From the NCBI GenBank assembly GCA_002753225.1, contig PDZS01000009.1, positions 16,500 to 80,499 on the forward strand: a stretch of DNA of 64,000 nt, given 5' to 3'. The stretch is from Deltaproteobacteria bacterium YD0425bin51. GTDB taxonomy: Bacteria; Desulfobacterota; Desulfobacteria; Desulfobacterales; YD0425bin51. Below, in pieces: positions 1,126-58,897 of the stretch. Made by a program: the position numbers and the translations under genes. Under the pieces are notes generated by a model, which was not told the DNA's origin, searched no databases, and saw only the letters and a program-made list of their open reading frames with translations. The first letter of the stretch is position 1; the number at the start of each line of letters is the position of its first letter.

Positions 1126-1725
1126 ATGGGATTTGCTGCAAAAAAAATAGAAAAAAAATATAGTTATGCTGATTATTTGGAATGGGAGGATAATCGCAGA
1201 TGGGAAATTATTGATGGCGATGTTTATGATATGAGTCCATCTCCATTAAGAAAACATCAATTTACTTCTATCGAATTATCGTGGCAAATAAAAAATTTTT
1301 TAAAAGCAAACAAAAGACCTTGTGAAGCCTATCATGCTCCATTTGATGTCCGCTTTCCAGAAAGCGTTAAAAATGATGAAGAAATTATAGATGTAGTTCA
1401 ACCTGATATAGTTGTTATTTGTGACTATTCTAAGCTAGATAGGCGAGGTTGTCATGGCGCTCCTGATTTCATAATAGAAATTCTTTCTCCTTATACAGCT
1501 CACAAAGACCATAATATAAAGCGTGACCTTTATGAAAAAAATAAAGTGAAGGAATATTGGATTATAGACCCCTCAAATAAAATTGTAACAGTTTATATTT
1601 TGGATGAAAAAAACAGATATGAAAAACCTATGATACATTCAAAGCAAGGCAAACTAAAAGTTGCAGCTTTAGAAGGACTTGAAATTGATTTTGACGACAT
1701 ATTTTCTGCGTCTGTTTTTGAATAA
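1126..1725 (+). CDS. Uma2/DUF820 family PD-(D/E)XK endonuclease
   Basis: YSYADY, EIIDG, QPDIVV, GAPDFIIEILSP, EYWIIDP motifs. Confidence 0.9.
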   Translation: MGFAAKKIEKKYSYADYLEWEDNRRWEIIDGDVYDMSPSPLRKHQFTSIELSWQIKNFLKANKRPCEAYHAPFDVRFPESVKNDEEIIDVVQPDIVVICDYSKLDRRGCHGAPDFIIEILSPYTAHKDHNIKRDLYEKNKVKEYWIIDPSNKIVTVYILDEKNRYEKPMIHSKQGKLKVAALEGLEIDFDDIFSASVFE

Positions 1726-4440: not shown

Positions 4441-7400
4441 TTATAATAAATAAATACTATTATATGCTTCATCAACATTAATAACTCCATCTTTAAGACG
4501 GGAAATAACATTCAACATTAAATCATCCTTACCTTCTTCAAAAACAAAACTATTTTGACAAGTAATATGTTCGGTAAGCTTTTGAATTGTTGGATAATTA
4601 AATAAATCTGTTATTCTTAAATTAGTTCCTATTTTTTCGTTTATAATATTTATTATTTCAACTGCTAAAATTGAATCTACTCCAAAATCTGTATAAGGTG
4701 TATTTATATCAAAATCCTGATTTTTAAGAACTTGGGTCAAACTCTCAGTTATTTTCTCTTCTATATTTACTCTATTGTTTATTTGTTTTTTTTTTTCTTT
4801 TACTAAGAAAGTTTTCTTATGCCTAGTCTCTCCATTGCTTTCAGAAGTTATAATATGCGCCAAACTATTTGGGATACTTTCATTCAAACATAAAACATTA
4901 TTAAAGCCTTCTTCAAAAAGTATCTTCTTCCACATATCCAAACTTAAAAGCGGACCACCCTTTAATCTATCTTCTTCATCATCAAACATCCACCAACCTT
5001 CTAGTAATCCAAAAGTAAGCGATGTAAAATTTGTTATAGAGGTCGCTTCATTTAATATCATCACTCCATTTCTCTTTAAAAGTGATTTTGCATTTTGAAG
5101 GGTATTTCTTATATTTTTCGTTGCGTGAATGACATTTGCAGCTATAACTATATCAAAGCTTCCATAATTATAGTTCTGCTCTTTTATATCTTTTTCTATG
5201 TTTAAAAGTTCAAATTTTACAAAAGGATAATCTTTAAATGTTTTTTTAGCATAATTTAGAAAACTCAAAGAAATGTCGGTATAAATATAATTAACATCTT
5301 TATTTGTCTTAATTAAATCCAAAACAAAAGAACTTGTTCCTCCTGTTCCTGCTCCAATTTCTAATATATTAATTTTATCAAAACCCCTAAATTCAATATA
5401 TTGCTTTACTGTTTGTGCTACCATATTATTTAAAAAATCTGCACTTTTATTTTCTCTGTAAACGCTTTCTACAAGGTCTGTCGAAGAATTAGGAAATATT
5501 ACTTCCACTGATTTTCTTTTTCCTGTAAGTATTTCACACAAATTATCCATGCAAACTGAAAGAAGACGAACATAAGGAAGCATCTCAGGATAATTATTTA
5601 TTATCTCTTCTTTCTTTTCATAAACATTGCAATTTTCAGATTGTTTTAAAATCTCCAATATTTTTTCATATAAACGCTTATATATTGGAATAACATTTAA
5701 ATCTTTATTTTCTTTAAAAATATCAACCAAATAATATCCGCACAGTTTATTTAAATCATCAAAAGGAGATTTTAATGGCGCGTCAATATCTGGTAATTCA
5801 AAGAGGTTTTTTACTTTTGATAAAAAGCTAGGTATGGTTTCAGGATAAAGCTCAATCAAACTATTTTTTGCTATATTAATTCTATCTAATAAAATTTTTT
5901 GAGCCTTTAGAGGCATAACGTGCTGCACTCTATGAGATAATATCCTGCAAATTGCATCTATACCTTCTTCTGTCTTAATTGGAATAAAACCCATTTTTTG
6001 AACTAATTTTTTTTGTTCGCCATTATCATTGTCCCAGTATCCCCAATTTATGCTTATGACAGGATAGGGGAGTTTTTGATTTAAATACATTGCAAAACTG
6101 TCTTTAAATCCGCATCCAAAAGCATAATGAGAAAGTCCTCTATCTCCTATAAAAGATTGGGATGAAGAAAAAAAGAGCAAAAAATCCAAATTTTCCTTCT
6201 CTATTGCTTTATACAAAACCATGCTTCCTTTAACTTTAGGAGACATAACAAAACGAAATGTTTCTTCATCCATTTCTGCTATAAGATTTGCATGAGGAAT
6301 AATTGCTGCATGAATTGCTCCATCAATTTTTCCAAACTTTTCTTTTCCTTTATTTACTCCATATTTTATGGATTCAAAATCGTTTGCATCAGCAGTCAAA
6401 TAAATTACATTTCCACCCAGTTCACTAACATTTTTTATCTTTTTATCAATATCTTCATTTAACTCTCTTCTCCCAATCCATATTAAATTTGCTTTAAATT
6501 CTTTACCTAAATATTTACTGAGCTTAAAGCCAATATTTCCTGTTCCTCCCAAAATAAGATAAACTCCATTTGTTTTAAAAGGCATTTTATATGCTTTAGG
6601 AATTTTGATCTTTTCAAAAACTAATCTGTATGGCCTAAATTTTTTATCCATAAAACTTACATTTATCTTGGGATATTCATTTTCTATAGCCCTTGAAAAA
6701 CCATATAAACTAAAAGGATTATCTGTAATAATTTTAAGCTCAATGGGATTTTTAATTAATTTAATAATTCTAAATAAAGTTAAAGCTTTTTGTTCAAATG
6801 ATTCAGCATCAAAATCGTTATCTAAATAATGTATAGTATCAGATTCTTCTATCTTGGATTTTTCTATTTCAAAATTTTGAGAAGACAGTATAAGAATGTT
6901 TTTCTTGTCAGAAGAATTAGATTTATAATATTTTAAGCTTGGTTTATAAAAAAAATCCAAATCCGGATTTTCTATTTTAGGCTCTTTTTTTAATGATTCT
7001 TTTATCCAGTGCCGTTCTTTTGCAAATGGATATGTTGGAATAGGAATACGTCTTGGCTTTTTATCTTGATATAATAACTCCCAATCTATTTCAACGCCTA
7101 CAACCCAAAGATGTGCCAGTTTATTTAACTTCCTGTCTTTAAATATGATTTTAATAAACTCGCTCCCTTCTTCTCCTTCAAGCAAAAGCTCTGCTTTTAG
7201 TTTACTTGTCTCAATATTTCCTTCATAAAAATTTTCTATATAATCTTTTCCCTTGATATATTTCTCTAATTTGACTTTTAATTCATCAATACTTGAAACA
7301 ACCATTGCTATTCTATGTTCCATTGAATTACGCCCCATCTGCAACGTATAGGCTATATTTTCAAGAGAGATTTCTTTTTTATCTAAAAATTCAATAAATT

Positions 7401-10400
7401 CTTTTGCATAATCTTGAAGTCTATCTTTATTTTTAGCTGATATTATTATTAAACAAGGGTTTGAAGATATGTTTTCTGTTATATTTTCATATTCTTCCAA
7501 AACTACATGGCAATTTGCTCCTCCAAATCCAAAAGAGCTTATTCCTGCTCTTCTTGGTATTAAATTCCCTTTTTCATCTATTAGCCTTTCCCATACCTTT
7601 GTTTTATCTACAATATAAAAAGGCGTATTTTCGAGCTTAATATTAGGATTTAAAGTTTTTAAATGCAGGGTGCCTGGCAGTTTTCCATATTGCAAAGATA
7701 ATATAACCTTCATGATTCCAGCAATTCCTGATGCTGGTTCCAAATGTCCTATATTTGTTTTAACAGAACCTATTCCGCAAAATTTTTCTTTTTTACAAAG
7801 CCTAAAAGCTTTTTTTATACCCTCAACTTCCACAGGATCTCCAAGCTCTGTTCCTGTTCCATGAAGTTCAAGGTAGCTAACTGTTTCAACGTCTACTCCC
7901 CCCTTTTTATATGCTGAAATAAGAAGGGCGCTTTGCGCATCATAATTAGGGGCAGTAAGTGATGCTGCTTTGCCTCCATGATTTACAGCAGAACCTTTTA
8001 TAGTTGCATAAATAAAATCATTATCTTTTTTGGCTCTATCTAAGGATTTAAGAACTATTACCCCAACACCTTCTCCTTTAACGTATCCATTTGCGCTTTT
8101 ATCAAAAGTTTTACATCTTCCGTCCGGAGATAAAACTCCAAGTTTTCCAGCACTAATCATTGTCCCAGGTGAAAGCATAAGACTTACTCCTCCAGCTACT
8201 GCCATGTCGCATTCACGATTTTTTATGGCGGATACAGCTCTATGAACAGCTATAAGACTGCTTGAACATGCTGTATCTATAACTTCGCTAGGTCCATGCC
8301 AGTCCATGATATATGAAACCCTGTTTGCAAGCATAGCATTTGAAGTTCCAGTTGCAGCAAGCGCACTGCTTTTGTTATGAAACATAAGGATATGCTGATA
8401 ATCATTAAACTGGACTCCGACAAAAATGCCTATTTGCTTTCCTGATAAATCACTTGCTTTGTACCCTGCGTCTTCAACTCCTTTCCATACGCTTTGTAAA
8501 AACAATCTATGCTGGGGATCCATCATTTCAGCCTCAGCTAATGATATTTTAAAAAAGGATGGGTCGAACTTATCAACATCAGAAATAAATCCGCCCCATT
8601 TATAAATACTTTGGTAATCTAAATCCCATCTTTCTTTTGGAATTTCTGTAATTAAATCATGTTCTAATTCTAAATGACGAAAAAAATCCATTAAATTTTT
8701 TGAATTGGGGAAAATGCCATCCATACCTATTACAGCTATATCTTCATTTTCAGATGCTATTTCTTTGTATGTATCAGTCGCAGTTTCAATATCGTTTTCA
8801 TTTAAATACTTACATAAAGATTTTATGTTGCTATGGGCAAAAAATATAGATGGAGTGATTTCTGTTTTATAGTTTTGACTTAATCTTTCAGCAAACATTT
8901 TAAGGGCAATGGAATCAAATCCAAAACTTCCTAAATTTTCATTTGGATCAATACTTTTTGGAGATACTTTAAGAATTGATGCTGCAATATTTAGTATATC
9001 CATATCTTTTGTAGAATAAGCATTCACAAGTTTTCCAGAATAATGAATTCCCGTTTTAGCAGGAATGACGTCATTCCCGCGAAAGCGGGAATCCAGGGGA
9101 ATATGTCCAATTGATGTCACCATTACTTGAGAATAATTGCTTTTAAGGATATCTTCAAATGAACTAGTACCCTGATCTGTTTCTAAATAGCTCATTCCAG
9201 ATTTTTTGAGATAAATTTCTTCGGCTTCCATATCCATATGGAGCCCGCCTTCTCGCCACAAGTGCCAATTAATTGATACTGCAACCCCTTGTCTCTCCCC
9301 CTTAATTCTTAATTCTTCACGCATTTTAGCAAAACCATCTAAAAACCTGTTTGCAACGGCATAATCGCACTGCCCAAAATCGCCTAAAATAGATGATGTT
9401 GAGGAAAAAAGAACAAAGAAATCAAGCAGCTCATTTTTAGTAACTTCATCTAAAACAATTGTCCCATGAACTTTAGGCTTAAGTGTTGCCTCAAAATCAT
9501 AAAATCCCTTTTTTGTAACAGGTATTTTTGAAGAAATACCAGCGCTGTGAATCACTCCATCAATTCTTCCAAATTTTTCCTTTGTTTTTTTTATAACATC
9601 TGACATTCCATTTATATCAGATACATCTGTTTGAAAATAAAGGAAATCTCCTTCTACTTCTTTCTTTGATCTCCCTGTTAAAATGATTTTTGCCCTGTAT
9701 TTTTTAGCTAAGAAATCTGCAAAAATTTTACCAAGCCCACCTGCTCCTCCAGTAATTAAATAAACGCCTTCATGCTTTATAGGCAAAGTTTTTTTTCCTT
9801 CTATTTTAATATTGGAAATATTTAAGGTAAATCTTTCCCCATTTTTATACATGACTTCATTATCATTTAATGTAAGCTCTTTTTTTATGATATTTAAAAT
9901 ATCTATATCTGTTTCAACTTTAAGCGTTGAAAACTTTATATTTGGAAGCACAAGGGCAAGAGACTTAGAGTATCCTGATACTGCATCTTTAAAAGGGCTG
10001 TTGTCATCTGATACAAATAAAAACCTGCACGCTTCAATATTTTTAATAATATGATAAACAGAATATATTGTATTTCCTAAAGAGCCATCTTTTCCTAATG
10101 ACCAAAGATGTACTATAGCTTTTGCATTTGGTATATTTAAAAATAATTTTTTATAGTCTTCTTCTGAATCTTGATTAATTTCATACAAATTATCAGACAG
10201 CTTTATGAATTCTTTACCGGGTTTAACTAAAATTCCATTAGAATTAACCCTTTTGTCATCTGTATCGAAAAAAACTATAGGGTCTGAATAATCTTCACAT
10301 GCAATTTTTTTTGATTTTCCCCATACAGGCTTAAGGAAATTTATATTTCCTTTATTTTCTGTTTTAAAGCCTGAACCTGAATACCAATATCTTTCCCTTG

Positions 10401-13400
10401 CAAAAGGGTATGTTGGTAGAGGAACTCGTTTTGGCAATTCATTGCTGTATAAAATCTTCCAGTCAATGGAAACTCCGGAAACCCATAATTTACCAATTTT
10501 ATCCAAATCTTTTTTCTTTAATATAACGTTTAAAAAAGCTTTCCCTTCGTCCCCTTCAAGTATAATTTCAGTTTTATTTTTTTTAACATTTCCAGAATAA
10601 AAATTATCTATATCTTTTTCTCTATTTACATATTTATTTAATTTTTCTTTTAGCTCATCAAGACTTCTAACAATTATAGATATTCGCTCTTCCATTTCGT
10701 CTCTACCCACCTGCAGAGTATAGGAAATACTTTTAAGAGAGAACTCTTCATCTTTTTTTAAAAACTCTAAAAAATTGATTGCATATTCTCTTAATCTTTC
10801 GCTGTCTTTAGCAGAAAGTAGAATCAGGCTTTCTGAATCCTCAAAATCAGGTATTTGATTTTCATATTCTTCAATTACAACATGAGCATTTGACCCTCCA
10901 AATCCAAAAGAACTGACCCCTGCTATACGGGGAGATTCCCAGTCCATTGTTTCTTTAATAATATAAAATGGAGTGTTTTTTATGTCTATGTAAGGATTAA
11001 GCTCTTTAAAATGAATGTTTGGAAAAAGCTTATGGTATTTCATCGAAATAAGAACTTTAATTACTCCTGCTATACCTGCTGATGTCTCTAAATGCCCTAT
11101 GTTTGTCTTAACTGAGCCCAGTCCGCAAAAATTTGACTTTGACGCTCCTTTAAAAGCCATCTTTAGTCCGCTTATTTCTATTGGATCACCTAAACTGGTC
11201 CCTGTTCCATGGGCTTCAATGTAAGTTATTTGATCAGGAGTTATACCTGATTTATTAAAAGCTGAAATTAAAACTTCAGCCTGTGCTTTAGGATTTGGAG
11301 CAGTAAGAGAGGCTGTGTGACCTCCATGATTTTCAGCAGTTCCTCTTATTACTCCATATATGTAATCACCATCTTCCTCTGCTTTATGCAGCGGCTTTAA
11401 AAATATTGCACCAACCCCCTCCCCTCTTACATAACCATCAGCATCTTTATCAAATGTTTTGCATTTCCCATCTTTGCTTAACATTCCTGCTCTGCTGAAT
11501 GCTATTGAAAGAGTGGGGGTGAGAATTGTGTTTACTCCGCCAGCAATTGCCATATCGCATGAACCGCTTCTTATTGCCTCAATTGCTCTATGAATTGCAA
11601 CTAAAGAACTAGAACAAGCAGTGTCTATAGGCTCGCTTGGACCATGAAAATTTAAAATATATGATATACGATTTGCTAAAACTGAATGCGCCATTCCTGT
11701 TGATGTATATGGTTCAATTTCATCTAAGCTTTTACTTATAAGTTCTGCATAATCATTTGCTGCAACTCCGACAAATATGCCAGTTTTACTGCCAGAAAGG
11801 CTTTTTGGACTGTATCCTGCATCTTCAATGGTTTTCCACACTGTTTCTAAAAAAAGCCTTTGCTGGGGATCCATAAGTTCTGCTTCTCTTGGAGATATGG
11901 AAAAAAACTTGCAGTCAAATTTATCAACATCTGGCATAAACCCGCCCCATTTTGCCCATGTTTTATTAGGGTTAGTTGCAGGGTCACCATAAATTGCTTC
12001 AAAATCCCATCTATCTTTTGGAATTAGAGAAACCATATTTGCCCCTGCTTCCAGATTCTTAAAAAAAGAATATAGATCAGGAGACTTTGGCATGACACAG
12101 CTAACTCCTATAATTGCAACAGGATATACTGATTCATTCTCTACAAATCTTTTGATTTGCATGTTAAAACGAGGCGTTAATTTAGGTACTTCAATCTCTT
12201 TTGCTATTTTATAATATTTCAAAAGAGTTTCTAAATAAGAATCGCATAAAAATTTTGAAAAATCTTTGATGCTCTTATGTTCAAAAAACAAAACAGGAGT
12301 TATTTCAAGATCATATTTTTCATTTAACCTATTTGCAAACTTAGTAAAGCTTATGGAATCAAAACCATATTCGCTTATATCTTCGTTTATATTTATATCT
12401 TTCTCATGTATCTTTAAAATTTCTGAAATTATTTTAAATAAATCTTTATAAACTTTTGCTAAAATCCCTTCTGCATTGCCATCTGTTAAGTAACCGTCCA
12501 CAAGTTTTCCTGCAAAATGGATTCCCACTTCCGCGGGAATGACGTCATTCCCACGGAAGTGGGAATCCAAGAAAACTGGTGTTCGGTTACTTATTGTAGT
12601 TTTTTCAAAGCTCCCTTTTATCATCATAATCTGGCTGTATTGTTCTGAAAGAGCTATTAAAAAAGTTTCTATCCCTTCTTTGTGAGAAATAGTCTTTATT
12701 CCTGTCCTTTTGAACAAAAGCTTTTCTGTTTCAGAATCAACCTTCATCCCTCCGTCTTTCCAAAGGCTCCAGTTTATGGAAATTGTTTTGCCATGCCTGT
12801 TTTGGATTTTTCTATAATCTGCAAAATTGTCCATAAAGCTGTTTGCATAAGCATAATCAGACTGTCCTGCATTTCCTGTTATTGCAGATATTGAAGAAAA
12901 AAGAACAAAAAAGTCCAAATTTTCATCTTTTGTAGCTTCATCAAGATAGATTGTCCCTGATATTTTAGGAGCAAAAACTGCTTCAACCTCTTCTTTAGTC
13001 TTATTTTGAATATATCCGTCTTTTATTATCCCTGCGCTATGAATAATTCCATTAATTGATTTAAATTTTTCTTTAATTTCATAAATTAATTTAAAAACAT
13101 CATCTCTTTTTGAAACATCTGATTGAATATATGTAATATTATGGTCAAAAGTTTTATTTAAAGGAGAACGTCCGCAAATAATGACATGCGCCCCTATTTT
13201 TGACGCAAGATAGTTTGCAAAAACAAGTCCTATCCCTGATGCTCCTCCAGTAATTAAATATACTCCTTCCTCCTTTAAAAGATTTTTTATATCTTTTGAA
13301 GGTTCAAACTCTTCAATTTCCCTTATATATCTTTGTCCATCCTTATATCTAATTTCTACGCTATCATTTATATGAAACTCCTGTAAAACTATGGAAGGTG

Positions 13401-16374: not shown

Positions 16375-16377
16375 AAT

Positions 16378-17058
16378 TTATCCCGCAATTTCAGTAATAA
16401 TAGATAACAAAATATTCTTACAATTTAACTTATGAAACTCTTTTATAGAATTATTAACATATTTTATCTTTTCTAACAGTTTTATGGGAAAGGTTTCAAA
16501 TCTAACTATTAATTCTTCAACAGCAAACTCTTGTTTTAAAATAGCCATATCAAAAGCCTTCTTCCAATCTTTATATCCTTGTTTATACGCCTCTAAAATA
16601 TCGGCTATATCTTTCGGCTCATCTCTATTTAAAATAGCTCCAAACTTATTTGAAATAATCTCATTTATAGTATCTATTTTATATCCATTTATGAAATTAG
16701 GTTTTTCGATACGTTGTGTATAGTCATTAACAAAATCTATTTGTAGTATGCTTTCTTTTTCTTTGAATAATACTCTAATAAAGTCTTTGCTTTCGACTGT
16801 TTTATCAAAGATAATTTCTTTTCCCTTTGAAATCTCTATAAACTCCTTAAATTCCGATTTAAAAAAAATGCTTTTATTAGCAAAAATATCTAAGTCATCG
16901 CTGTATCTATGATAATAATTGTGAAATCTTGTTAAAGCTGTTCCTCCTGTTAAGTAAAATAAGTTATCAAAAGAAAAAATAATATCCAGCACTTTATCTT
17001 GAAAAATATAGAGGTTATTGTAATAGCCAGCGTAATCGTTTGGGAGCATTCTCTTCAC
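16378..17058 (-). CDS. AbiEii/AbiGii-family nucleotidyltransferase toxin
   Basis: YLTGGTAL..HRYSDDLD and NK..A..R..PKD..D motifs; alternative start ATG 17049. Confidence 0.85.
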   Translation of the reverse strand: MKRMLPNDYAGYYNNLYIFQDKVLDIIFSFDNLFYLTGGTALTRFHNYYHRYSDDLDIFANKSIFFKSEFKEFIEISKGKEIIFDKTVESKDFIRVLFKEKESILQIDFVNDYTQRIEKPNFINGYKIDTINEIISNKFGAILNRDEPKDIADILEAYKQGYKDWKKAFDMAILKQEFAVEELIVRFETFPIKLLEKIKYVNNSIKEFHKLNCKNILLSIITEIAG

Positions 17059-17341
17059 CTAAATAATAATTCCTAAGGGATATTAACCTGATATTTTGAA
17101 ATTCATATTTAAAGAATCCATTTGGTATTTTTGCAAGCATTTCTTTTAGCTCATTTTCACTAAAAATCTTTACTGCTTTAAAAAAAAATTTATGATTTAT
17201 GATTATTTTTTTAAATAAATATAACTTTTCAGTTTTTGTTCCGCTTAAAATAATGTCTTCTATATCTTTAATACTATAGTCATAGTCCCAAAAGCACTGA
17301 CTTAAAATATCGTTTAAATTAATTTCCCCCATAGCGTCCAT
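17015..17341 (-). CDS. Putative cognate antitoxin (FWDY-type small protein)
   Basis: Small ORF with CFWDYD, upstream of and overlapping the AbiEii-type toxin. Confidence 0.65.
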   Translation of the reverse strand: MDAMGEINLNDILSQCFWDYDYSIKDIEDIILSGTKTEKLYLFKKIIINHKFFFKAVKIFSENELKEMLAKIPNGFFKYEFQNIRLISLRNYYLGEENAPKRLRWLLQ

Positions 17342-17355
17342 AACTTTTTAAGTTA

Positions 17356-17703
17356 TTAATAATTATATAGTTTTTGAATTTGCTCAAGCTTATCTCTTAA
17401 TGGTTTTACCATCTTTTCAAACTGCTCATTAGATAGAATACCCTGCCGATATAGATTTTCCAAGAGTGTTATCTCTCCCCTTACCTCTCCTTTTGCTTCT
17501 CCTCGTGCTTCTCCCTTTGCTTTTCCTCGTGCTTCTCCCTTTGCTTTTCCTCGTGCTTCTCCTTCAATGAGACCTTGATTATAAATATGCTCTGAAATAG
17601 TAGTTTCAACAAATTCCATATTTACCTCCTTTTTTATATTATTTAAGGTTTCTTCTGATAATTTGCTGTACATCTCTGACCATCGATTTATCAAAATAAC
17701 CAT
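17356..17703 (-). pseudogene. C-terminal fragment of an Rpn/DUF4351-like protein
   Basis: GLIEGEARGKAKGEARG tail typical of Rpn-type proteins; no N-terminal nuclease domain. Confidence 0.5.
17477..17563. repeat. 12/24-bp coding tandem repeat (GEAR/GKAK)
   Basis: Repeated cctcgtgcttctccctttgctttt units. Confidence 0.8.
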
Positions 17704-17754
17704 TTAACCAATGCGTCATGTGTTTTAGGATTTATTTTCAATTATCCCTCCTAT

Positions 17755-18195
17755 TTACGATACTTCTCTATGGACAGCAATTAAAGCTATTACCTCCCCT
17801 TCTTTTATGATAGGCATGGGGTTCATTTCTGCTTTAATAAAAGTTTTATCTTTTTTAATATATTCTACTTTTATTAGTTTTGGGATACTCATACTCTCAA
17901 TATAATTTGCAAGATCATTAAAAATTTCGTCTGCTTTTTCTTTAATAATAATTTCTTTTATGTTTTTGCCAATTATATCATTGCTGTTTTCATACCCAAG
18001 CATCTTTGCGAAAGCTATATTTGTAAAAGCTATAGTGCCGTTAGGAGTTATAATTGTCAGTCCATCATTAGTTTCATTTACAAAATTTCTAAAAATCCGT
18101 TCTGATTCTATATATGCTTTTAATTCATCCACTTTTCTTTCTAATTTCTTAAATTCTTTAATTAAATATCTAATAGCATTATGTTCATTTATCAT
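17755..18195 (-). CDS. Stand-alone PAS domain protein with N-terminal coiled coil
   Basis: SERIFRNFVNETNDG, N.AFAKMLGY, IIGKN; ATG overlaps the PKS stop (ATGA). Confidence 0.8.
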   Translation of the reverse strand: MINEHNAIRYLIKEFKKLERKVDELKAYIESERIFRNFVNETNDGLTIITPNGTIAFTNIAFAKMLGYENSNDIIGKNIKEIIIKEKADEIFNDLANYIESMSIPKLIKVEYIKKDKTFIKAEMNPMPIIKEGEVIALIAVHREVS

Positions 18196-21100
18196 ACCAT
18201 CTCCTCTTCTATTAGTTGGTCAGCCTCATAAATATCTAGCTCCCCTACTTTTAAACGGTCAATAATGTTTAAAATAATACGGTCTTCATCATTATGCTTA
18301 ATTTCTCCAGAAAAATTATTTGTTATATGATCTTTTAACTTTAAAATTGTTGGATAATTAAATAAATCAGTTGTTCTTAAATTTAAATTAAGTTTTTCAT
18401 TAATTTCGTTTATAATTTCAACTGCAAGTATTGAATCAACGCCAAATTCTGTGTAGGAAGTATCTGTGGTTATATTCTCTCTATCAACTTTAAGAACTGA
18501 AACTAAAATATCTATTATCTTTTCAGCTATATCTTGATTTAGTTTTTTTTCTATGCTCCTTTTATTTTCCTTTAGTTTTCTTATCTCTCCATTGCTTTCA
18601 GCAATTATTACATTTTGAGGACTTGCATAGTTATTAATTAAATCAATAACATGATCAAAACCCTCTTCATAAAGAACTCTTTTCCACATTTCAGTAGAAA
18701 GAAGCGGACTCCCTTTTATACGATATTCTTCATCTTCAAACAACCACCATCCATCCAAAAGACCAAATGTAAGGGTAGAAAACTCCATGACAGAAGTAAT
18801 TTCATTTATAACCATCCAGCCGTTCGCTTTTAAAAGTGTTTTAAGGTTTCTAACAGCATTTTTTATACTTTTTGTTGCATGAATCACATTTGAAGCAATA
18901 ATAATATCAAAGGCTCCATTTTCATATCCTTGAGATAAAGGATCAGTCTCTATATCAAAAGTGTTAAATTCAACAAAAGAATATTTACCATAATTTTTTT
19001 CCCCATATAAAATAAAACTTTTGGAAATATCAGTATAAACATAATGAATATTTTCACCGTGCTTAGAAATAGCAGAAAGAAGCGTTGCACTTGTTCCGCC
19101 TGTTCCTGCTCCTACTTCTAAAATATAAATTTTTTCATCCCCTGATTCCCTTGTCTTTATATAAGAAATTACTCCAGCTAACACTAAGTTATTAAAAAAA
19201 TCTGCAGTAATATTTCCCTTGTAGACATTTTCAACTAATTCCATAGATGAATTTGGGAACATAATATCTGTTGCAGGAATCTTACCTGTTAGAATTTGAG
19301 GATAATTTTTAAGGCATGTCCATAAAAGCTTTACATAAGCTGAGATTTCAGGGAAATCGTTTATAAGTTTATCTTTTTTTTCATCTAAGTTTTCATATTC
19401 GCTATATTTAAAATCAGCTAAAATATCTTCTAAAGCCCTATAAAGCTTATTATAGCTCGGTATTATATCCTCTTTAGAAATCTTGCTAAAAACCTCAAAT
19501 AAAAGTGACTTTCCAAATAGATTCATCTCATAAAAAGAATTAGATGGATTATTATCTAAATTTATAACAGGGAACTCAATTTTAGATAGCGCTTCCTGAA
19601 AAACTGAAGGCCTATTTTCAGGGTAAGTTTCTATTTGGTAACTATTATTTATCCCCATTTTAGATAAAATGTCATCACTCGCCTTAAAAGCCATAATTTG
19701 TCTAACTCTTCCTGTTAGAATCTTTGAAATAGCATCTATTCCTTCTTGTAGAGAAATTGACTGAACACCCTGGCTAAGCAGCCGATTCTTATGGTTATTA
19801 TCTGATACTATTCCAACATCGCCAAAGTAGCCCCAATTAATTATTTTGACAGGATAAGGAGCAACATTTTGTAGATGAAGAGCGAAAGAGTCTTTAAAAG
19901 TACAGGCTGCAGCATAATTAGCCTGTCCCATATTTGCTGTAAATGACTGGGCAGAGGAAAAAAAGATCATAAAATCAAGAGGCTCGTCTTTAAAGATTTT
20001 AGCTAAAACTACGCTGCCATTAACTTTAGGAGACAACACATCTTTTAGAGTATCTTCGTCCATATTATATATTGCTTTGTCTTTCAAAACAATTGCAGAG
20101 TGAATAACTCCATTAATTTTTCCAAAAGCTTTTTTTGCTGTTTGAAAAGCTGTATTCATTGATTCAAAATCAGACCCGTCTGAAGAAATATATAAAACCT
20201 CTCCACCTAATTTTTCAATTTCTAATATTTTCTCTTTAAGACTCTCATTTATCTTTTTCCTGCCAATTAGAACTAATTTAGCCTGAAAATTTTTTGATAA
20301 ATATTTAGAAAATTCAACCCCAATCCCTCCAGCTCCGCCAAGGATAAAATAAACTCCCTGTTTTTTAAAAGCTGGATAATTAGATCTTGGGATGTTAATT
20401 GTCTCTAAAATTCTTATATAAGGTTTACCATATCTTATGGCAGCCTCTTCAATGTTGTCATAACTTAGCTTTTTAATTATTGGGGCTATAACTTTAATAT
20501 CTTTTAAAGTTATATCAATATATTTTGCGGATAATTTCCTATATTCTTTTGCAATTACACGGGTTAATCCCTGCAGACTCCCAGAAAAAGAAAAACCGAC
20601 ATCCTCTTCTGTGACCTTATGGACATCGTTTGTTATAACTATAAGCTTAGGATTAAATGCCTCTATTGCTTTTACGAGTCTAAATAAAGATAATATACCT
20701 TTTTCTTGGCTTTCTTTAAGCTCATCTAAATCATAAATATCTATTTCCTTTTCTTTAATCCCTCCTAAAAAATAAATAATATCAATATGACCAATTTTAT
20801 TTATAAAAACATCTATATCCTCTTCATTTAGAACAAGCTCAAAGACTTCATCGTTTGAGTAATTTTCTGATATTACAGTCTTCAGCTTCAAACAATCTTT
20901 TGGATAAATGATTAAGACTCTATTTTTAACTTTTAACTCTGGATGGGGTTTAAAATCGTATGGGAACCATGTTGGTTTATAAAAAAAATTACAAATATTA
21001 TCGTCAGTCTCTTTCTTTTTCGTAGTTGAATCAAACCAGTAGCTCTTTTTTTCAAATGGATAAGTAGGAAGATGGATCCGTCTTGTTTTTTGCCCTTTAT

Positions 21101-23822
21101 GAATAATCTTTAAGTCACTTTCTACCAAGAGACTCTTTTCGTCTCTCACATATCTGTCTAATTTATCAATCAAATCATCCATATCTTTGGCTGAAACCGC
21201 TATTTTTTCATCCATTAAATCTCTATACTGCAAAGTGGCAGATATCTGAGAAAGCTTTAAATTCTTTTTATGTTTTAATATAAATTCGTATATGTTTTTT
21301 ACATAAACCTTTAATCTGTCTTTATTTTTAGCAGATATTAGAATAGGCTGACTATTTTTGCTGTTTGGCAAATTAATATCCTTATATTCTTCGACAATAA
21401 CATGGGCGTTTGTTCCGCTGAATCCAAAAGAACTAATTCCAGCTCTTCTCGGTATATCTTCAGGGATTTTCCATTCATTAAATGTTCTTATTACATAAAA
21501 AGGGCTTTCTTTAAAATTGATATATTGATTTTCTTTTTTAAAATTCAAAGAAGGGGGAATCTGTTTGTTTTTTAAACTTAGCAAGGCTTTTATAAAACCA
21601 GCAATCCCTGCGGCAGAAGCAGTATGACCAATATTTGTTTTTACAGAGCCTATGGCGCAATATTGTTTTTTATTTGTATATTTTCTAAAAGCGTTTGTTA
21701 ATGCTTCAATTTCAATTGGATCCCCTAATTTTGTGCCTGTACCATGAGCTTCTATATAAGTTATTGTCTCTGGATTTACGTTAAATTTCTCATAAACAGA
21801 TATTTCGAGATCAGTTTGAGATTTTGCGCTTGGAGCTGTAATTCCATTGGTTTTACCATCCTGATTTATTCCAGAACCTTTAATTACACCGTATATATTA
21901 TCTCCATCTCTTATCGCGTTTAATAAAGGCTTTAAGACTACTACCCCAACCCCCTCACCCGGAACAAATCCGTCTGCTGAATCATCAAAAGTTTTGCACC
22001 TGCCTTCAGGAGAAAGCATTCCAGCGCTTGTTGTCATAATGTGGAAAGCTGGAGTATTATATACAAAGACTCCCCCTGCTATTGCCATTTCTGATTCGCG
22101 AGAGATTAAGCTTTGACATGCCAGATGAATTGCCACAAGAGATGATGAGCATGCTGTATCAATTGGAATACTTGGTCCTTTAAGATTTAAAAAATATGAA
22201 ATTCTTGCTGCCAAAATAGAATTAGAGTTGCCCAAAAAAGACTGTGCATCGATTTTTGCTGGATAATCACCCCGCACTGCTCCAACAAACACTGATACAT
22301 TTTTGTTAGATATGGACTTATTAGCATATCCAGCATCTTCTAACGCAGAAAAGCTCTCTTCCAGAAAAAGCCTCTGCTGGGGATCCATCTGCTCTGCTTC
22401 TCTGCCAGACATATTAAAAAAGAGAGGATCAAATTTATCAATATCTTCTAAAAAACCTCCCCATTTGTAATAATTATCATCCCCGTAAAACAAAGACTCC
22501 CCCCACCTGCCTTTAGGAGGAGAAGATATATGGCTTTTACCTAAAATCAGATTTTCCCAAAATTCGTCAATGTTAGCTGCGCCTGGAAACCTGCAAGACA
22601 TACCTATAACTGCAACATCTTGACTCAAGTTTTCTTTTTTTACATAAGGGGTATTAATCTCAGGCATTGTTACAACAATTTTTCCTATGTTTTTTCTATC
22701 CTGCATGAACTTATAGGCTTCTTTAATTTCTCGAAATGGAAAGACTTTTAAAACTGTAGGACGAATAGTCCCTTCTTCCAAATGTCTGACCATAATGTCA
22801 AAATATTCTCTTAATCTATCTGGTTCCCTTGTTATAAGCCTTCTTAAATCCACACTGCATATAACCTGATTATCTACCATATTGGACAAATCAAAATTAT
22901 TTGAAGATTTTAAAGCAGTCATAGCTATTTCAATATAACGACCACAAGGAGCAAGAATATCTATCCCTTTTTGAATAGCATCTCCTGGCAAAGTATTAAT
23001 AACTACATCAACACCATAGCCATTTGTATATTCCAAAATTTTTTTACTAAAATCTTCCTTTTGGTAATTTATTAAATAATTTACCCCCATTTTTTTTAGA
23101 TAATCCAATTTATCATTTGAGCTGGCTGTTGCGTAAATGTCTGCCCCTATTATTTTTGCCATCTGCACAGCAATAAGACCAGTTCCTCCTGCTGCTGTCT
23201 GGATTAAAATCTTTTCACCTGATTTAACTTTAGCTATCTCAAATACATGATGCATTGTGAGAAAAACAACTGGAAAAGCGCATGCTTCTTCATGAGTAAT
23301 ATTACTGGGCTTTTTAACAAGCAAATTTTCATTTGTATTTACAATTGCGCTGTGTCCTCCCATATTAATTCCAGTAAGCCCCATTACTTCATCGCCAACT
23401 TGAAATTGACCCGCCATATCTCCAGTTTTTAAAACCACACCTGATATTTCAAAACCCGGAGTAAAAGGATACTCAGGCATTGTTGGATAAAGGCCGTTTA
23501 TGCAGAGTAAATCGCCAAAATTTAACGAGAAAGCCTTAACTAGAACCTGAACATCTGTATCTGCTGGATCTTCAGGTTCTATATTACGAATCTCAATATT
23601 TTCAATTTTAGCTGGTTTTGTTAACACTACTGCTTGATAGGGACCCTGGATTCCCGCTTTCACAGGAATGACGTCATTCCCGCGAAAGCGGGAATCCAGA
23701 ATAATATGTGATCTGTTAGTTATTTTTTGGATTAATTTATATCCATCTTCAGGAGATATTAGATTTGATTCTATTTTTTTGAGGATTTCTTTTATATGGG
23801 ACTCATTATTTGTCTTTTTAAT
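18192..23822 (-). CDS. trans-AT type I PKS: DD-ER-KS-KR-cMT-ACP-DD (extended upstream to a probable ATT start)
   Basis: ER LIQTAAGGTG; KS DTACSSS/HGTGT/NIGH; KR GGAGGIG; MT LEVGAGTGG; ACP GVDSI. Frame is open upstream of GTG 23663 and encodes a docking-like helix pair. Confidence 0.88.
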   Translation of the reverse strand: MKKTNNESHIKEILKKIESNLISPEDGYKLIQKITNRSHIILDSRFRGNDVIPVKAGIQGPYQAVVLTKPAKIENIEIRNIEPEDPADTDVQVLVKAFSLNFGDLLCINGLYPTMPEYPFTPGFEISGVVLKTGDMAGQFQVGDEVMGLTGINMGGHSAIVNTNENLLVKKPSNITHEEACAFPVVFLTMHHVFEIAKVKSGEKILIQTAAGGTGLIAVQMAKIIGADIYATASSNDKLDYLKKMGVNYLINYQKEDFSKKILEYTNGYGVDVVINTLPGDAIQKGIDILAPCGRYIEIAMTALKSSNNFDLSNMVDNQVICSVDLRRLITREPDRLREYFDIMVRHLEEGTIRPTVLKVFPFREIKEAYKFMQDRKNIGKIVVTMPEINTPYVKKENLSQDVAVIGMSCRFPGAANIDEFWENLILGKSHISSPPKGRWGESLFYGDDNYYKWGGFLEDIDKFDPLFFNMSGREAEQMDPQQRLFLEESFSALEDAGYANKSISNKNVSVFVGAVRGDYPAKIDAQSFLGNSNSILAARISYFLNLKGPSIPIDTACSSSLVAIHLACQSLISRESEMAIAGGVFVYNTPAFHIMTTSAGMLSPEGRCKTFDDSADGFVPGEGVGVVVLKPLLNAIRDGDNIYGVIKGSGINQDGKTNGITAPSAKSQTDLEISVYEKFNVNPETITYIEAHGTGTKLGDPIEIEALTNAFRKYTNKKQYCAIGSVKTNIGHTASAAGIAGFIKALLSLKNKQIPPSLNFKKENQYINFKESPFYVIRTFNEWKIPEDIPRRAGISSFGFSGTNAHVIVEEYKDINLPNSKNSQPILISAKNKDRLKVYVKNIYEFILKHKKNLKLSQISATLQYRDLMDEKIAVSAKDMDDLIDKLDRYVRDEKSLLVESDLKIIHKGQKTRRIHLPTYPFEKKSYWFDSTTKKKETDDNICNFFYKPTWFPYDFKPHPELKVKNRVLIIYPKDCLKLKTVISENYSNDEVFELVLNEEDIDVFINKIGHIDIIYFLGGIKEKEIDIYDLDELKESQEKGILSLFRLVKAIEAFNPKLIVITNDVHKVTEEDVGFSFSGSLQGLTRVIAKEYRKLSAKYIDITLKDIKVIAPIIKKLSYDNIEEAAIRYGKPYIRILETINIPRSNYPAFKKQGVYFILGGAGGIGVEFSKYLSKNFQAKLVLIGRKKINESLKEKILEIEKLGGEVLYISSDGSDFESMNTAFQTAKKAFGKINGVIHSAIVLKDKAIYNMDEDTLKDVLSPKVNGSVVLAKIFKDEPLDFMIFFSSAQSFTANMGQANYAAACTFKDSFALHLQNVAPYPVKIINWGYFGDVGIVSDNNHKNRLLSQGVQSISLQEGIDAISKILTGRVRQIMAFKASDDILSKMGINNSYQIETYPENRPSVFQEALSKIEFPVINLDNNPSNSFYEMNLFGKSLLFEVFSKISKEDIIPSYNKLYRALEDILADFKYSEYENLDEKKDKLINDFPEISAYVKLLWTCLKNYPQILTGKIPATDIMFPNSSMELVENVYKGNITADFFNNLVLAGVISYIKTRESGDEKIYILEVGAGTGGTSATLLSAISKHGENIHYVYTDISKSFILYGEKNYGKYSFVEFNTFDIETDPLSQGYENGAFDIIIASNVIHATKSIKNAVRNLKTLLKANGWMVINEITSVMEFSTLTFGLLDGWWLFEDEEYRIKGSPLLSTEMWKRVLYEEGFDHVIDLINNYASPQNVIIAESNGEIRKLKENKRSIEKKLNQDIAEKIIDILVSVLKVDRENITTDTSYTEFGVDSILAVEIINEINEKLNLNLRTTDLFNYPTILKLKDHITNNFSGEIKHNDEDRIILNIIDRLKVGELDIYEADQLIEEEMV
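23647..23722. mobile_element. Partial copy of 107-bp palindromic element, in frame between PKS docking domain and ER
   Basis: TGGATTCCCGCTTTCACAGGAATGACGTCATTCCCGCGAAAGCGGGAATCC plus degenerate arm ending GTTAGTTA; encodes LDSRFRGNDVIPVKAGI. Confidence 0.8.
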
Positions 23823-39625: not shown

Positions 39626-39943
39626 ATGCCAGAAGTTGAATATGCGGGGAAAAAATTTGGGGTCGATGAAGACGGCTTTATTGATGATTTTAAAAATTAT
39701 TGCGAAGAATGGGTTCAATATGTGAAAAGCCAGGAAGGTATTGATGAGTTATCACCAGAGCACAGACAAGTTATTCAAGTGCTTCAGGATTATTACAAGA
39801 AAAACGGTATTGCTCCTATGGTTCGTGTTCTTTCCAAAGTTACAGGGTTTAAATTAAAACACATATATGAGCTTTTCCCATCAGGTCCAGGAAAAGGAGC
39901 CTGTAAAATGGCTGGTCTTCCAAAACCAACAGGATGCGTATAA
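39626..39943 (+). CDS. dsrC: DsrC sulfur carrier
   Basis: LFPSGPGKGACKMAGLPKPTGCV with both C-terminal Cys; AGGAGG RBS. Confidence 0.95.
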   Translation: MPEVEYAGKKFGVDEDGFIDDFKNYCEEWVQYVKSQEGIDELSPEHRQVIQVLQDYYKKNGIAPMVRVLSKVTGFKLKHIYELFPSGPGKGACKMAGLPKPTGCV

Positions 39944-50200: not shown

Positions 50201-51487
50201 CCGTGTAAGCATTTCAGATTCTGAAACCAAGCCGTTCATTACATCAATACATTGATTTAAATTGTTTTTAATCTCATTAAAGTCGCCGTTATATTTATCT
50301 GAAATTCTGCCTGGAATATCTCCTTTAGAAATACGATCCACATATTCAGCAGCAACATTTAGAGGACCAATTACTGCATCTAATGTATCATTTACACCTT
50401 TTACGATTTTTGCGTAATCTCCAGTAAACTTAGAAACACTCCCTCTGGTATCAAGTTTCCCCTCAACTGCAGCCCGTGTTAACATATCAGATTCTGAAAC
50501 TAATCCATTTATGGTATCTATACATTGATTAAGATTATTTTTAATTTTATTAAAATCCCCAAGATATTGGTCAGTAATTTTTGGAGGAATCTGACCATGG
50601 GAAATTTTATCAACATAGTCTGCAGCTACTTTAAGAGGATTTATTACAGCATCTAATATATTATTTATCCCTACTGCAATATCTCTGAATTCAAAGTTAA
50701 TTGACTCTGGGGTTGCCCTAAAATCGAGCTTTCCATTTACAGCAGCATCTGTAATATTCTTTACTCCTGATAATATAGATTCTATAATAGATTTAACATT
50801 TTTGGATAAATACCAGCTAGCAAAGATTGATAAAATTATTGCTACTGTCATGAATATTATTAGCAGTTTCCTGTCAAATTCACCTCTTTCAGATGATAAT
50901 TTGTCTACTTCAGATGATAGCTTGTCATTTTCATCAATTACGCGGGATAACGCTTCTTCTGATTCTCTAAATGATTTTTGCATATTTAGCATTTCACTTA
51001 AAATATTTTTGTCCATACTATCTATTTTAGCGTCATCATTTGAAATACCTGCTGATATTAATTTGTCTTTTTCAATATTTAGATCTACGAGTTTCTGATG
51101 CTGTTTTTTCCAGTCATTCCACTTAATCAAAAAATCTTTCCATAGTTTTTCTTCTTCTTTGCTTTGTGGCAGAGGTTCGTAAACTTTCCATGCTTCATCT
51201 ATCCTTTTCCATGCTTTTTCTATAGTATCATAATATCCCTTTCTGGCATCACCATGTAATCTACGGTGAGCAAGCCCCACTTCTCCTAATGCAATAGCTG
51301 TCAGCCCTTCATTTATAACTCCAAGAGATTTAATACTTGGAAGACGGTTATTTGAGACTTCATCTTGACTCTTAATAGCATTTAATATTCCAAAATAACC
51401 TACAAGCCCTGTAATAAATACAATTAAAACACAAAATCCAGCTAACAAAAAAACTTTTTGCCCTAATTTTGTTCTACTAAACATCAT
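47270..51487 (-). CDS. MCP with 4HB-like sensor and poly-HAMP array
   Basis: 2 TM; 9 full 91-aa di-HAMP repeats plus half repeats; [20 protein letters not shown]. Confidence 0.92.
48070..50790 (-). repeat. 273-bp coding tandem repeat (about 10 units)
   Basis: catattcagc recurs at 48157, 48430, 48703 and onward. Confidence 0.92.
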
Positions 51488-54988: not shown

Positions 54989-55004
54989 AATCATGTTCAG
55001 ACAA
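54989..55004. repeat. Single GTCTGAAC element arm forming the cheA stop codon
   Basis: Minus strand TTGTCTGAACATGATT. Confidence 0.55.
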
Positions 55005-58339: not shown

Positions 58340-58897
58340 TCATGCCCAAAGATTTGTCAAATCAATTTCTATTTCTTGAAAAGGCTCTCCACTAACTTTG
58401 TCATCATCACTAAAGAAATCAACTAAGACCCACTTCCCAGACTCAAGCCTGAATATTTCTAAATTTTTTGATGTTGGGTCTATTAACCATACATAAGCCA
58501 CACCAAATTTAGCATATTTAGGCATTTTCCTTTTTCTATCGTGTTTAGCTGTTGAAGGTGATAACACTTCACATATCCAATCAGGAGGAATTGATGTCCA
58601 ATTATTTTCTGGGAGCGTTGGCATTCTTTCTCTTTTCCATCCAGCTAAATCAGGCACAACAGTATCTTCTTTTGTTTCACTAAATTTGATTTCTGGTTCA
58701 ACCAATATCCACCATCTTCCAGAATTTCCTTGCCCATATTTGATTCTAATATCTGCTAGTCCAAAAGCAGCATTACTATGCTTGTAAGATGGTCTCGGCA
58801 TGGCAAAAAGCTCACCATCTATAATTTCGCCTATCATATTTTCTGGAATAGTATATAAATCTTTATAAGTAGCATTTATCTTAATTGGCGTTAACAT
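58340..58897 (-). CDS. Uma2/DUF820 family endonuclease (close paralog of 43411)
   Basis: VPDLAGW, PDWICEVLSP. Confidence 0.9.
   Translation of the reverse strand: MLTPIKINATYKDLYTIPENMIGEIIDGELFAMPRPSYKHSNAAFGLADIRIKYGQGNSGRWWILVEPEIKFSETKEDTVVPDLAGWKRERMPTLPENNWTSIPPDWICEVLSPSTAKHDRKRKMPKYAKFGVAYVWLIDPTSKNLEIFRLESGKWVLVDFFSDDDKVSGEPFQEIEIDLTNLWA

Follow-up and report, generated by a model that had tools for sequence, protein, structure and literature searches.

Canonical trans-acyltransferase (trans-AT) polyketide synthases (PKSs) are encoded in contiguous clusters, work with trans-acting proteins of the AT-AT-ER type (bacillaene PksE type) and have their split modules encoded by adjacent genes. 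A scattered arrangement is described for the patellazole (ptz) pathway of Candidatus Endolissoclinum faulkneri, which comprises six large PKS genes and free-standing AT1, AT2 and ER; the host is a reduced intracellular tunicate symbiont, and that account ascribes the scattering to rearrangements early in host restriction (PMC3851785). Large trans-AT clusters of 23 and 13 modules, each at a single locus, are reported from a Verrucomicrobiota metagenome-assembled genome (MAG) (PMC11832590). Here we analyse a stretch of 64,000 nucleotides (the window, by which we mean this whole stretch) that corresponds to positions 16500–80499 of contig C126, a 141-kb contig of the Desulfobacterales MAG YD0425bin51. 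The window carries two AT-less PKS genes, g1 and g2, and the 5' part of a third, g3. We propose, with a probability of roughly 0.55, that these genes encode intact subunits of one trans-AT assembly line composed of 12 megasynthase genes (38 KS domains) at nine loci.

The architecture is in many respects that of canonical trans-AT PKSs, including AT-less modules, a RhiE-like linker after every KS, a free-standing AT-AT-ER protein and KS clades that track the upstream chemistry. In-line C-methyltransferase (C-MT) domains and DH-only modules are also shared with them, as are modules divided, after DH or KR, between two proteins. In contrast to the canonical systems, the module halves are encoded here on different contigs or tens of kb apart. 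As in the ptz pathway, the PKS genes lie at several loci split by unrelated genes, and we infer their membership of one pathway from complementary protein ends. Unlike the ptz host as it is described (PMC3851785), the present one has a 5.2-Mb genome rich in chemotaxis and signalling genes, and the system comprises 12 PKS genes with 38 KS, including a domain split across unlinked genes. A scattered trans-AT pathway is already known from a reduced symbiont; the present case is that of a chemotactic, non-reduced anaerobe and is unusually large. The Verrucomicrobiota clusters, as reported, are likewise multimodular trans-AT PKSs predicted from the MAG of an uncultured bacterium, but they are single loci and shorter than the 38 KS found here, if these form one line (PMC11832590).

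No orthologue above ~53% identity was identified in the public genomes or metagenomes searched. In 30 genomes of the same order, each representing a family of its own, g1 had a best non-self match (60%) that covered only the KS and belonged to a conventional co-directional array. The 80 loci kept from GTDB representatives reached at most 52% identity in their best segments, and the 74 loci from metagenome contigs at most 53%. Neither of the latter two sets contained a cluster colinear with this KS set, an outcome that an earlier note on this DNA had considered. With no orthologues or conserved synteny found, the ancestral gene order could not be read from any relative. One metagenomic cluster, L125, has the same split points (...DH-KR-MT-ACP-ACP / ER-KS-DH / KR-ACP-KS...) and is 48% identical to g1 over residues 9–1818. 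Unlike the system described here, its three genes are adjacent and co-directional and a KS-AT module is present; the cluster is not orthologous. In the literature searched, trans-AT PKSs were described neither from Desulfobacterales nor from sulfate reducers.

AT-less PKS genes of the window

The domain order of g1 is ER (residues 26–335), KS (345–719), KR (1098–1289), C-MT (1498–1674) and ACP (1711–1784). Its enoylreductase is recognised by Pfam as ADH_N/ADH_zinc_N and its KS carries the C-H-H triad. The ER-KS part is 58–65% identical to the internal ACP-ER-KS of the PKS named C84 (Table 1). The N-terminal position of the enoylreductase implies that a protein with a C-terminal ACP precedes g1.

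The product of g2 is composed of KS-DH-KR-ACP-KS-KR-ACP-KS-KR-cMT-ACP. Pfam recognised three KS, one DH, three KR, one C-MT and three PP-binding stretches, and the last carrier domain (residues 3863–3938) was matched by ACP_SdgA_C. All three KS have the C-H-H triad, the DH keeps its catalytic histidine and the ACP serines lie in GFDS or GVDS motifs. Across 3194 aa, g2 is 53% identical to the PKS C48.

The third protein, g3, is organised as ACP-KS-KR-ACP-KS-DH-KR-cMT-ACP-KS-KR-ACP-KS-DH0. It begins with a bare ACP and stops one residue past a DH-like domain, with no carrier domain at this end. According to the DH alignment, a tyrosine replaces the catalytic histidine of this terminal domain and a glutamate replaces the aspartate. 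With a bare-ACP start and a KS-DH end in g3 and an ER start in g1, the ends of these two proteins make sense only in combination with proteins encoded on other contigs.

The RhiE-like_linker family (PF22336) matched three stretches in g2, one in g1 and four in g3, which corresponds to one after each KS. Carrier serine motifs were present at all eight positions checked across the three proteins. Pfam searches of the full genes found neither Acyl_transf_1 (PF00698) nor Thioesterase in g1, g2 or g3. These results bear out the earlier note, which had described two giant AT-less PKS genes with four KS (one in g1 and three in g2) and a third gene about 37 kb away on the other strand; the measured gap between g1 and g3 is 37.7 kb. 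The note had also seen no AT, TE or phosphopantetheinyl transferase (PPTase) in the window. The Pfam scan of the window open reading frames (ORFs) was likewise negative, and all six AT matches of the genome lie on other contigs.

Genome-wide inventory of trans-AT parts

A profile search of the genome returned 55 matches to the KS family. Hidden Markov models (HMMs) built from the Pfam-verified domains of g1 and g2 resolved the AT-less matches into 13 proteins. With one of these, C1, left out, the trans-AT set comprises 12 AT-less PKS genes with 38 KS at nine loci on seven contigs, and none of the 12 proteins was matched by a local AT HMM. The proposal of the earlier note that AT-less PKS genes are scattered through the genome is supported and extended by this count.

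A Pfam scan of 183 flanking ORFs and two large neighbours showed that each PKS gene sits among unrelated genes. These include clpXP-lon-tig, hemA, hisBCD, yidC-rnpA, ftsH-folP and chemotaxis operons. The two PKS genes on C62 are separated by 24 kb, and all other PKS genes are flanked on either side by 9 kb or more of non-PKS genes.

The genome also encodes the trans-acting parts. The earlier note had suggested locating AT and TE genes, and its concern that an AT might be missing altogether did not hold. A free-standing gene (C62:23817–27131, 1104 aa) encodes an AT-AT-ER protein, which scored 693.5 bits against the PfaD-family ER model TIGR02814 (cut-off 449) and 471 bits, in two stretches, against TIGR00128 (fabD). 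Its second AT has the motifs GHSLG and GAFHS, and the first has GSSLG. An acyl ligase, a short-chain dehydrogenase/reductase (SDR) and a 122-aa ORF follow, the last directly before C62a. This ORF is weakly ACP-like (NCBIfam E 5e-4, Pfam E 0.18, motif GFKSID). The single PPTase of the genome, of the Sfp type, is on C52. The KS of C2TE is the only KS with Cys-Gln-His and the only AT-less KS fused to a TE; a carbamoyltransferase gene and a macrolide-type glycosyltransferase gene follow it.

The thirteenth protein, C1, was set aside because its sequence matches the first module of the C66 hybrid PKS with 72% identity over 1433 aa. In the KS tree its KS groups with the hybrid KSs, and a 115-aa KS-linker fragment (C1:115139–115486) lies just 5' of the gene. 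It looks like a stray duplicated module.

Clusters of the nonribosomal peptide synthetase (NRPS) and cis-AT hybrid types, separate from the trans-AT set and carrying TEs of their own, are present on C59, C66, C73 and C81, and the genome has 42 condensation-domain matches. One NRPS ORF of 11,972 aa (C59:23867–59785) reaches the contig end and contains at least 12 condensation domains and a TE; a second very large ORF, of 10,950 aa, lies at C95:33799–66651. All six AT matches in the genome fall in PKS genes or clusters and no stand-alone housekeeping FabD is evident. A 310-aa AT at C66:41945–42877 scored 217 bits against the fabD cut-off of 260.9.

Catalytic motifs argue for intact proteins

The C-H-H triad is conserved in 46 of 47 aligned KS, and in 37 of the 38 of the trans-AT set. 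We also compared the motifs that we take to be the catalytic His/Asp of DH and the KR Asp ("LDD"). The DH histidine is kept in 15 of 17 domains; the exceptions are the terminal DH-like domains of g3 and C84, which have a tyrosine.

These data bear on the possibility that the genes are scattered relics, in which an ancestral cluster was broken by rearrangement and its pieces are inactive, decaying or otherwise used. The two DH-like domains lacking the histidine would suit such a history, as would the palindromic repeats that have entered several PKS reading frames, the KS-linker fragment 5' of C1 and the AbiEii-like gene between g1 and g2. Against this stand the near-complete KS and DH motifs and the intact carrier serines of the window proteins. 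In addition, ~46,000 codons (the 12 ORF lengths summed) are open in a genome of 32% GC, with single ORFs of up to 5522 aa. The repeat insertions are all in frame and in interdomain linkers, and the composition of the genes fits that of the host genome. We consequently regard decay as improbable.

Complementary protein ends and a split KR

Six of the 12 proteins have incomplete C-terminal ends: KS-DH in g3, C84, C62b and C73b, KS-DH followed by the structural half of a KR in C48, and KS-KR in C2b. Six have N-terminal starts that would complement these, namely KR-ACP in C62b and C2b, a catalytic-half KR followed by ACP in C2a, and ACP-KS in g3, C69 and C73b. Of the remaining ends, five proteins stop with an ACP, five begin with a KS and one (g1) begins with ER-KS. 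The sixth KS or ER start is accounted for by the presence of the starter locus at C62a.

The four KS-DH proteins (g3, C84, C62b and C73b) stop 0–6 residues after the DH, which leaves no room for an overlooked ACP. C2b extends 10 residues past its KR and C48 extends 207 residues past its DH. The last 207 aa of C48 show homology to the N-termini of C2b and C62b as well as to the stretch found in cis ahead of KR catalytic subdomains, and the N-terminus of C2a corresponds to the first residues of a KR catalytic subdomain. C48 and C2a therefore contain one KR between them, divided into its two halves. In C73b, the first 69 aa match the linker located in cis behind Asp-less KRs (seven matches), and the C-terminus of C2b is an Asp-less KR. 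It should be stated that the domain maps of nine of the 12 proteins were drawn with the HMMs made from the genome's own domains.

KS clades and the order of the proteins

Grouping of KS clades by upstream chemistry has been formulated as a correlation rule for trans-AT PKSs in PMC7930024. The earlier note had recommended a KS phylogeny, and in our tree, which contains only the KSs of this genome and whose clades are named locally, the clades do track upstream chemistry. We sorted 26 in-cis KS in this way. An MT lies upstream of all four in-cis KSs in clade A, an Asp-less KR upstream of all seven in clade D-ii, and a DH upstream of all nine in the three enoyl clades. The six members of clade C-iii follow an Asp-bearing KR without DH, or a bare ACP. 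KS4 of C62a is a mixed case, with DH and MT upstream and a position in an enoyl clade.

When the rule was applied between proteins, the N-terminal KSs fell in the clade predicted by the proposed partner at 10 of 11 junctions. Proteins ending in MT-ACP (C62a, g1, g2 and C69) would be followed by the proteins that begin with clade-A KSs (g1, g2, C48 and C84). The DH-KR-MT-ACP end of C69 would lead into the ER of g1; DH-KR-MT-ACP-ER-KS is also found in cis in C84 and in the metagenomic locus L049, and between adjacent genes in L125. The His-less DH ends of C84 and g3 would precede g3 and C2b, respectively, whose first KSs are in a non-enoyl clade, and the active DH ends would precede C62b, C69 and C2a.

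Enumeration gave 432 single-line orders that fit the ends alone and two that also fit the clade rule, one of which keeps g1 before g2 as in their operon. The order that we favour is accordingly a prediction from sequence: C62a, C84, g3, C2b, C73b, C62b, C69, g1, g2, C48, C2a and C2TE.

Balanced ends would be expected for any number of complete pathways, and the large number of orders allowed by the ends also leaves room for two or more separate trans-AT lines. Each of these would be spread over several loci, share the AT-AT-ER and the PPTase, and make one of several mid-sized polyketides; the window genes would be divided between lines, for example with g3 in one and g1–g2 in another. Duplicated module blocks such as that shared by g2 and C48 are what paralogous lines would give, C59, C66 and C73 carry further, distinct megasynthase clusters that have TEs of their own, and 37 extensions in one bacterial line would be exceptional. 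However, we found only one AT-less KS-TE fusion and saw only one starter cassette. All three N-terminal ACPs are needed for split modules, so that none is free for loading. We also considered a junction from C62a to C48 on the basis of KS subclades, and dropped it once the split KR had fixed the sequence C48, C2a, TE. With that routing the line ends after 12 KS and the other eight proteins close into a cycle that lacks both start and release. On these grounds we consider several lines less likely than a single line, which remains our preferred interpretation.

Proposed assembly line and product

In the single line that we propose, the AT-AT-ER protein would provide every module with malonyl units and also act as the trans enoylreductase, and the Sfp-type PPTase on C52 would prime the carrier domains. 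The chain would start at the C62a locus, where the acyl ligase, the SDR and the ACP-like 122-aa protein precede the first KS. It would then be handed from protein to protein across split modules, including the KR divided into structural and catalytic halves, with g3 working early (approximately modules 9–12) and g1–g2 late (approximately modules 27–30). Release would be carried out by the KS0-ACP-TE protein encoded on C2, beside the carbamoyltransferase and the macrolide-type glycosyltransferase. The predicted product is a very long chain formed in ~37 extensions, hydroxylated, partly unsaturated and with up to nine C-methyl branches, which is probably carbamoylated and glycosylated.

A more far-reaching formulation, which we put forward only tentatively, is that a free-living, chemotactic, anaerobic member of the Desulfobacterales runs this single 12-protein, 38-KS line from nine unlinked loci. 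The order would be set purely by split-module recognition, including KR halves encoded on different contigs, and the product would be a methyl-branched, carbamoylated and glycosylated chain of ~C75–C80. The in-frame repeats in the linkers would mark, and perhaps drive, the duplication and scattering of module blocks. To our knowledge, a single 38-KS line would be the longest trans-AT line, and it would occur in a lineage without known polyketides.

Several points weigh against a single line. The MAG is in 134 contigs, 97% complete and 3.7% contaminated, such that a further PKS gene or a linkage between contigs could be hidden. The home-made HMMs behind nine of the 12 domain maps missed one ACP of g2 that Pfam found. 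Because the clade rule was both deduced from these 12 proteins and then used on them, it is not independent. It does not explain the last junction (C2a to KS0), and the junctions C84 to g3 and g3 to C2b were drawn from just the two His-less DH-like domains and clade placement. If C1 belongs to the line, the count changes. Finally, no relative carrying the system appeared among the same-order genomes, GTDB representatives and metagenome contigs searched.

If one line does run from nine loci, even a very long modular synthase of a non-reduced genome would not need clustering or colinearity, and split-module docking would suffice to order a dozen megaproteins. Mining based on clusters, in the manner of antiSMASH, would break the system up into some nine "incomplete" clusters and overlook its product. 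The complementary split points provide testable pairs for trans-AT docking and engineering, namely the structural and catalytic halves of the KR, KS-DH with ACP, and ACP with ER. The Desulfobacterales would be added to the producers of complex trans-AT polyketides.

Assembly integrity and a palindromic repeat

The dispersal would be unreal if contigs were chimeric at PKS repeats or came from more than one organism. The estimated contamination of the MAG leaves some room for this, and PKS repeats are mentioned as a known cause of misassembly in PMC7930024. However, g1 and g3 are separated within a single 141-kb contig. The longest DNA matches of the window PKS genes elsewhere are 66–72% identical, and identity above 80% is confined to repeat copies of up to 118 bp. 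GC content is flat along the window (0.29–0.36). The seven contigs with trans-AT PKS genes correlate with the genome in tetranucleotide frequencies at r ≥ 0.996 and rank at or above 36 of 76; the PKS genes themselves have GC of 0.31–0.33 and r of 0.98–0.99. Chimerism of the contig, which the earlier note had feared, is therefore unlikely, and we rate an assembly or binning artefact as the least probable of the explanations considered.

A repeat family common to some PKS contigs and many non-PKS contigs also counts against an artefact. Its representative in g2 is a palindromic dispersed repeat of 108 bp (Table 1), with copies 90–94% identical on 10 other contigs and full-length copies at 84–90% on C62, C2 and C126. 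It gave 63 blastn matches in the genome, 26 of them inside ORFs of at least 150 aa. Copies lie inside PKS genes on C126, C62, C2 and C84, in the NRPS-PKS hybrid gene on C81 and, in DNA without PKS genes, on 12 or more further contigs, which links C126, C62, C2, C84 and C81 to one genome. No copy was seen on C48, C69 or C73.

Where it is inserted in frame, the repeat adds ~36 residues with a peptide like ..LDSRFRGNDVIPAKAGIH... This peptide motif occurs in eight ORFs of at least 300 aa, six of which encode PKS or NRPS-PKS proteins, always in interdomain linkers. Of the 10 in-frame sites found through the motif, eight are in PKS or NRPS-PKS interdomain linkers. Palindromic elements of Rickettsia are known to insert in frame into protein genes. 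The repeat described here resembles them as a dispersed palindrome, in frame in coding sequence and adding ~36 residues, but differs in host, in element family and in its concentration in PKS and NRPS-PKS linkers.

The host genome

The MAG has a size of 5.22 Mb and 32% GC, with estimated completeness of 96.96% and contamination of 3.72%. It encodes several chemotaxis operons and many two-component systems, and with this content and size it does not have the genome-reduced profile of a ptz-type symbiont. Its family has no other member among the 30 same-order genomes sampled.

The earlier note had called the organism a sulfate reducer. In part this is consistent with our searches: a profile search of the MAG found aprA (945.7 bits, cut-off 641.75), whose product is 85–87% identical to AprA of Desulfobacterales MAGs, and dsrC lies in the window at 39641–39940 (115.8 bits). 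On the other hand, there was no dsrA (TIGR02064) or NIR_SIR (PF01077) match anywhere in the 97%-complete MAG. The dsrAB genes have either been lost or are unassembled.

The functions of purH are encoded separately, with the IMP cyclohydrolase gene at window 40642–41319 (−) and the AICAR transformylase gene at C126:93711–94961 (+), 53 kb apart on opposite strands. The two genes flank g3, and we considered that an inversion might have broken purH. We rejected this because, among the 29 same-order genomes that gave a match, 28 encode the cyclohydrolase in a frame of its own (~204–262 aa). For the same reason the split is ancestral.

Genes surrounding g1, g2 and g3

The coordinates of the window features and of the remaining AT-less PKS genes are collected in Table 1.

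Table 1. Features of the window (window positions) and AT-less PKS genes located elsewhere in the MAG (contig positions).
Feature	Position	Strand	Length	Description
g1	18192..23663	-	1823 aa	AT-less PKS; Pfam and local HMMs
g2	4441..16374	-	3977 aa	AT-less PKS; Pfam and local HMMs
g3	61382..64000, 5' part (full gene C126:77881-91944)	+	4687 aa	AT-less PKS; Pfam and local HMMs
PAS-domain protein	17755..18195	-	146 aa	Pfam PAS 1.8e-12; TIGR00229; overlaps g1 stop by 4 bp
ORF without family	17356..17703	-	115 aa	Nothing above threshold (Pfam, NCBIfam, PADLOC)
ORF without family	17015..17341	-	108 aa	No match in Pfam, NCBIfam, PADLOC
AbiEii-like nucleotidyltransferase	16378..17058	-	226 aa	Pfam AbiEii 4e-10, 40.5 bits (cut-off 22.5); PADLOC AbiEii 8.5e-14
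Palindromic dispersed repeat	12486-12594	.	108 bp	In frame, KR1-ACP1 linker of g2 (residues 1261-1297)
Partial copy of 108-bp repeat	9017-9095	.		In frame, KR2-ACP2 linker of g2 (residues 2427-2453)
Copy of ~108-bp repeat	44648-44765			Inside histidine kinase gene 44006-46378
Copy of ~108-bp repeat	23647-23724			At g1 start
C62a	C62:31193-47761		5522 aa	AT-less PKS
C62b	C62:71843-85648		4601 aa	AT-less PKS
C84	C84:31883-47197		5104 aa	AT-less PKS
C48	C48:24995-35467		3490 aa	AT-less PKS
C69	C69:20979-36047		5022 aa	AT-less PKS
C73b	C73:150641-159880		3079 aa	AT-less PKS
C2a	C2:74136-88316		4726 aa	AT-less PKS
C2b	C2:88814-100681		3955 aa	AT-less PKS
C2TE	C2:63731-66532		933 aa	KS0-ACP-TE
C1	C1:115544-119827		1427 aa	KS-KR-ACP; set aside

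The genes g1 and g2 are not adjacent; they are tightly packed on the same strand with four small ORFs between them. The last of these, the AbiEii-like gene, stops 3 bp ahead of the g2 start codon. Its product matches the toxin of an AbiE (type IV) toxin-antitoxin pair. The 108-aa ORF occupies the position where an AbiEi antitoxin would be expected, and no such antitoxin was recognised, as both this ORF and the 115-aa ORF upstream were negative in Pfam, NCBIfam and PADLOC.

The gap between g1 and g3 contains 24 ORFs of at least 150 aa plus dsrC, 25 genes in total, which agrees with the housekeeping and chemotaxis genes that the earlier note had placed there. Among them are genes for cytochrome c maturation (ccsA/resB), an M16 peptidase, iron-sulfur flavoproteins of the Hdr-like kind, the IMP cyclohydrolase, two CheA, CheW, CheR, two methyl-accepting chemotaxis proteins (MCPs) and several histidine kinases. 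One MCP, of 1405 aa (window 47270–51487), has 10 HAMP_2 repeats (1061 bits), and the two CheA paralogues are encoded in tandem near it (window 52951–54975 and 54997–57039).

On the 3' side of g3, a convergent AAA_35 gene overlaps the g3 stop and is followed by the AICAR transformylase gene, with no PKS continuation. This AAA_35 gene (C126:91925–93526; L008:14126–15727, just past the window) has counterparts at C1:119842–121422 and C77:34659–36266. All three of these closest paralogues in the genome (scoring 942 and 360 bits against the g3 neighbour) sit directly at the 3' end of a megasynthase gene. The first is convergent with g3, that on C1 follows the C1 PKS at a distance of 15 bp, and the remaining one overlaps a 3613-aa NRPS at its end.

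Three genes for putative endonucleases of the Uma2 family were identified in the window (1126–1725, 43411–43977 and 58340–58897), and another (L035:1009–1662) adjoins the 3' end of the C84 PKS. Genes for LanM-like lanthionine synthetases (DUF4135 with LANC_like) were found ~10 kb past g3 on C126 (L009:8943–11525 and 11437–12765) and on C73 (L030:6964–10083). One of these adjoins a YcaO cyclodehydratase gene, which indicates clusters for ribosomally synthesised and post-translationally modified peptides near PKS loci.

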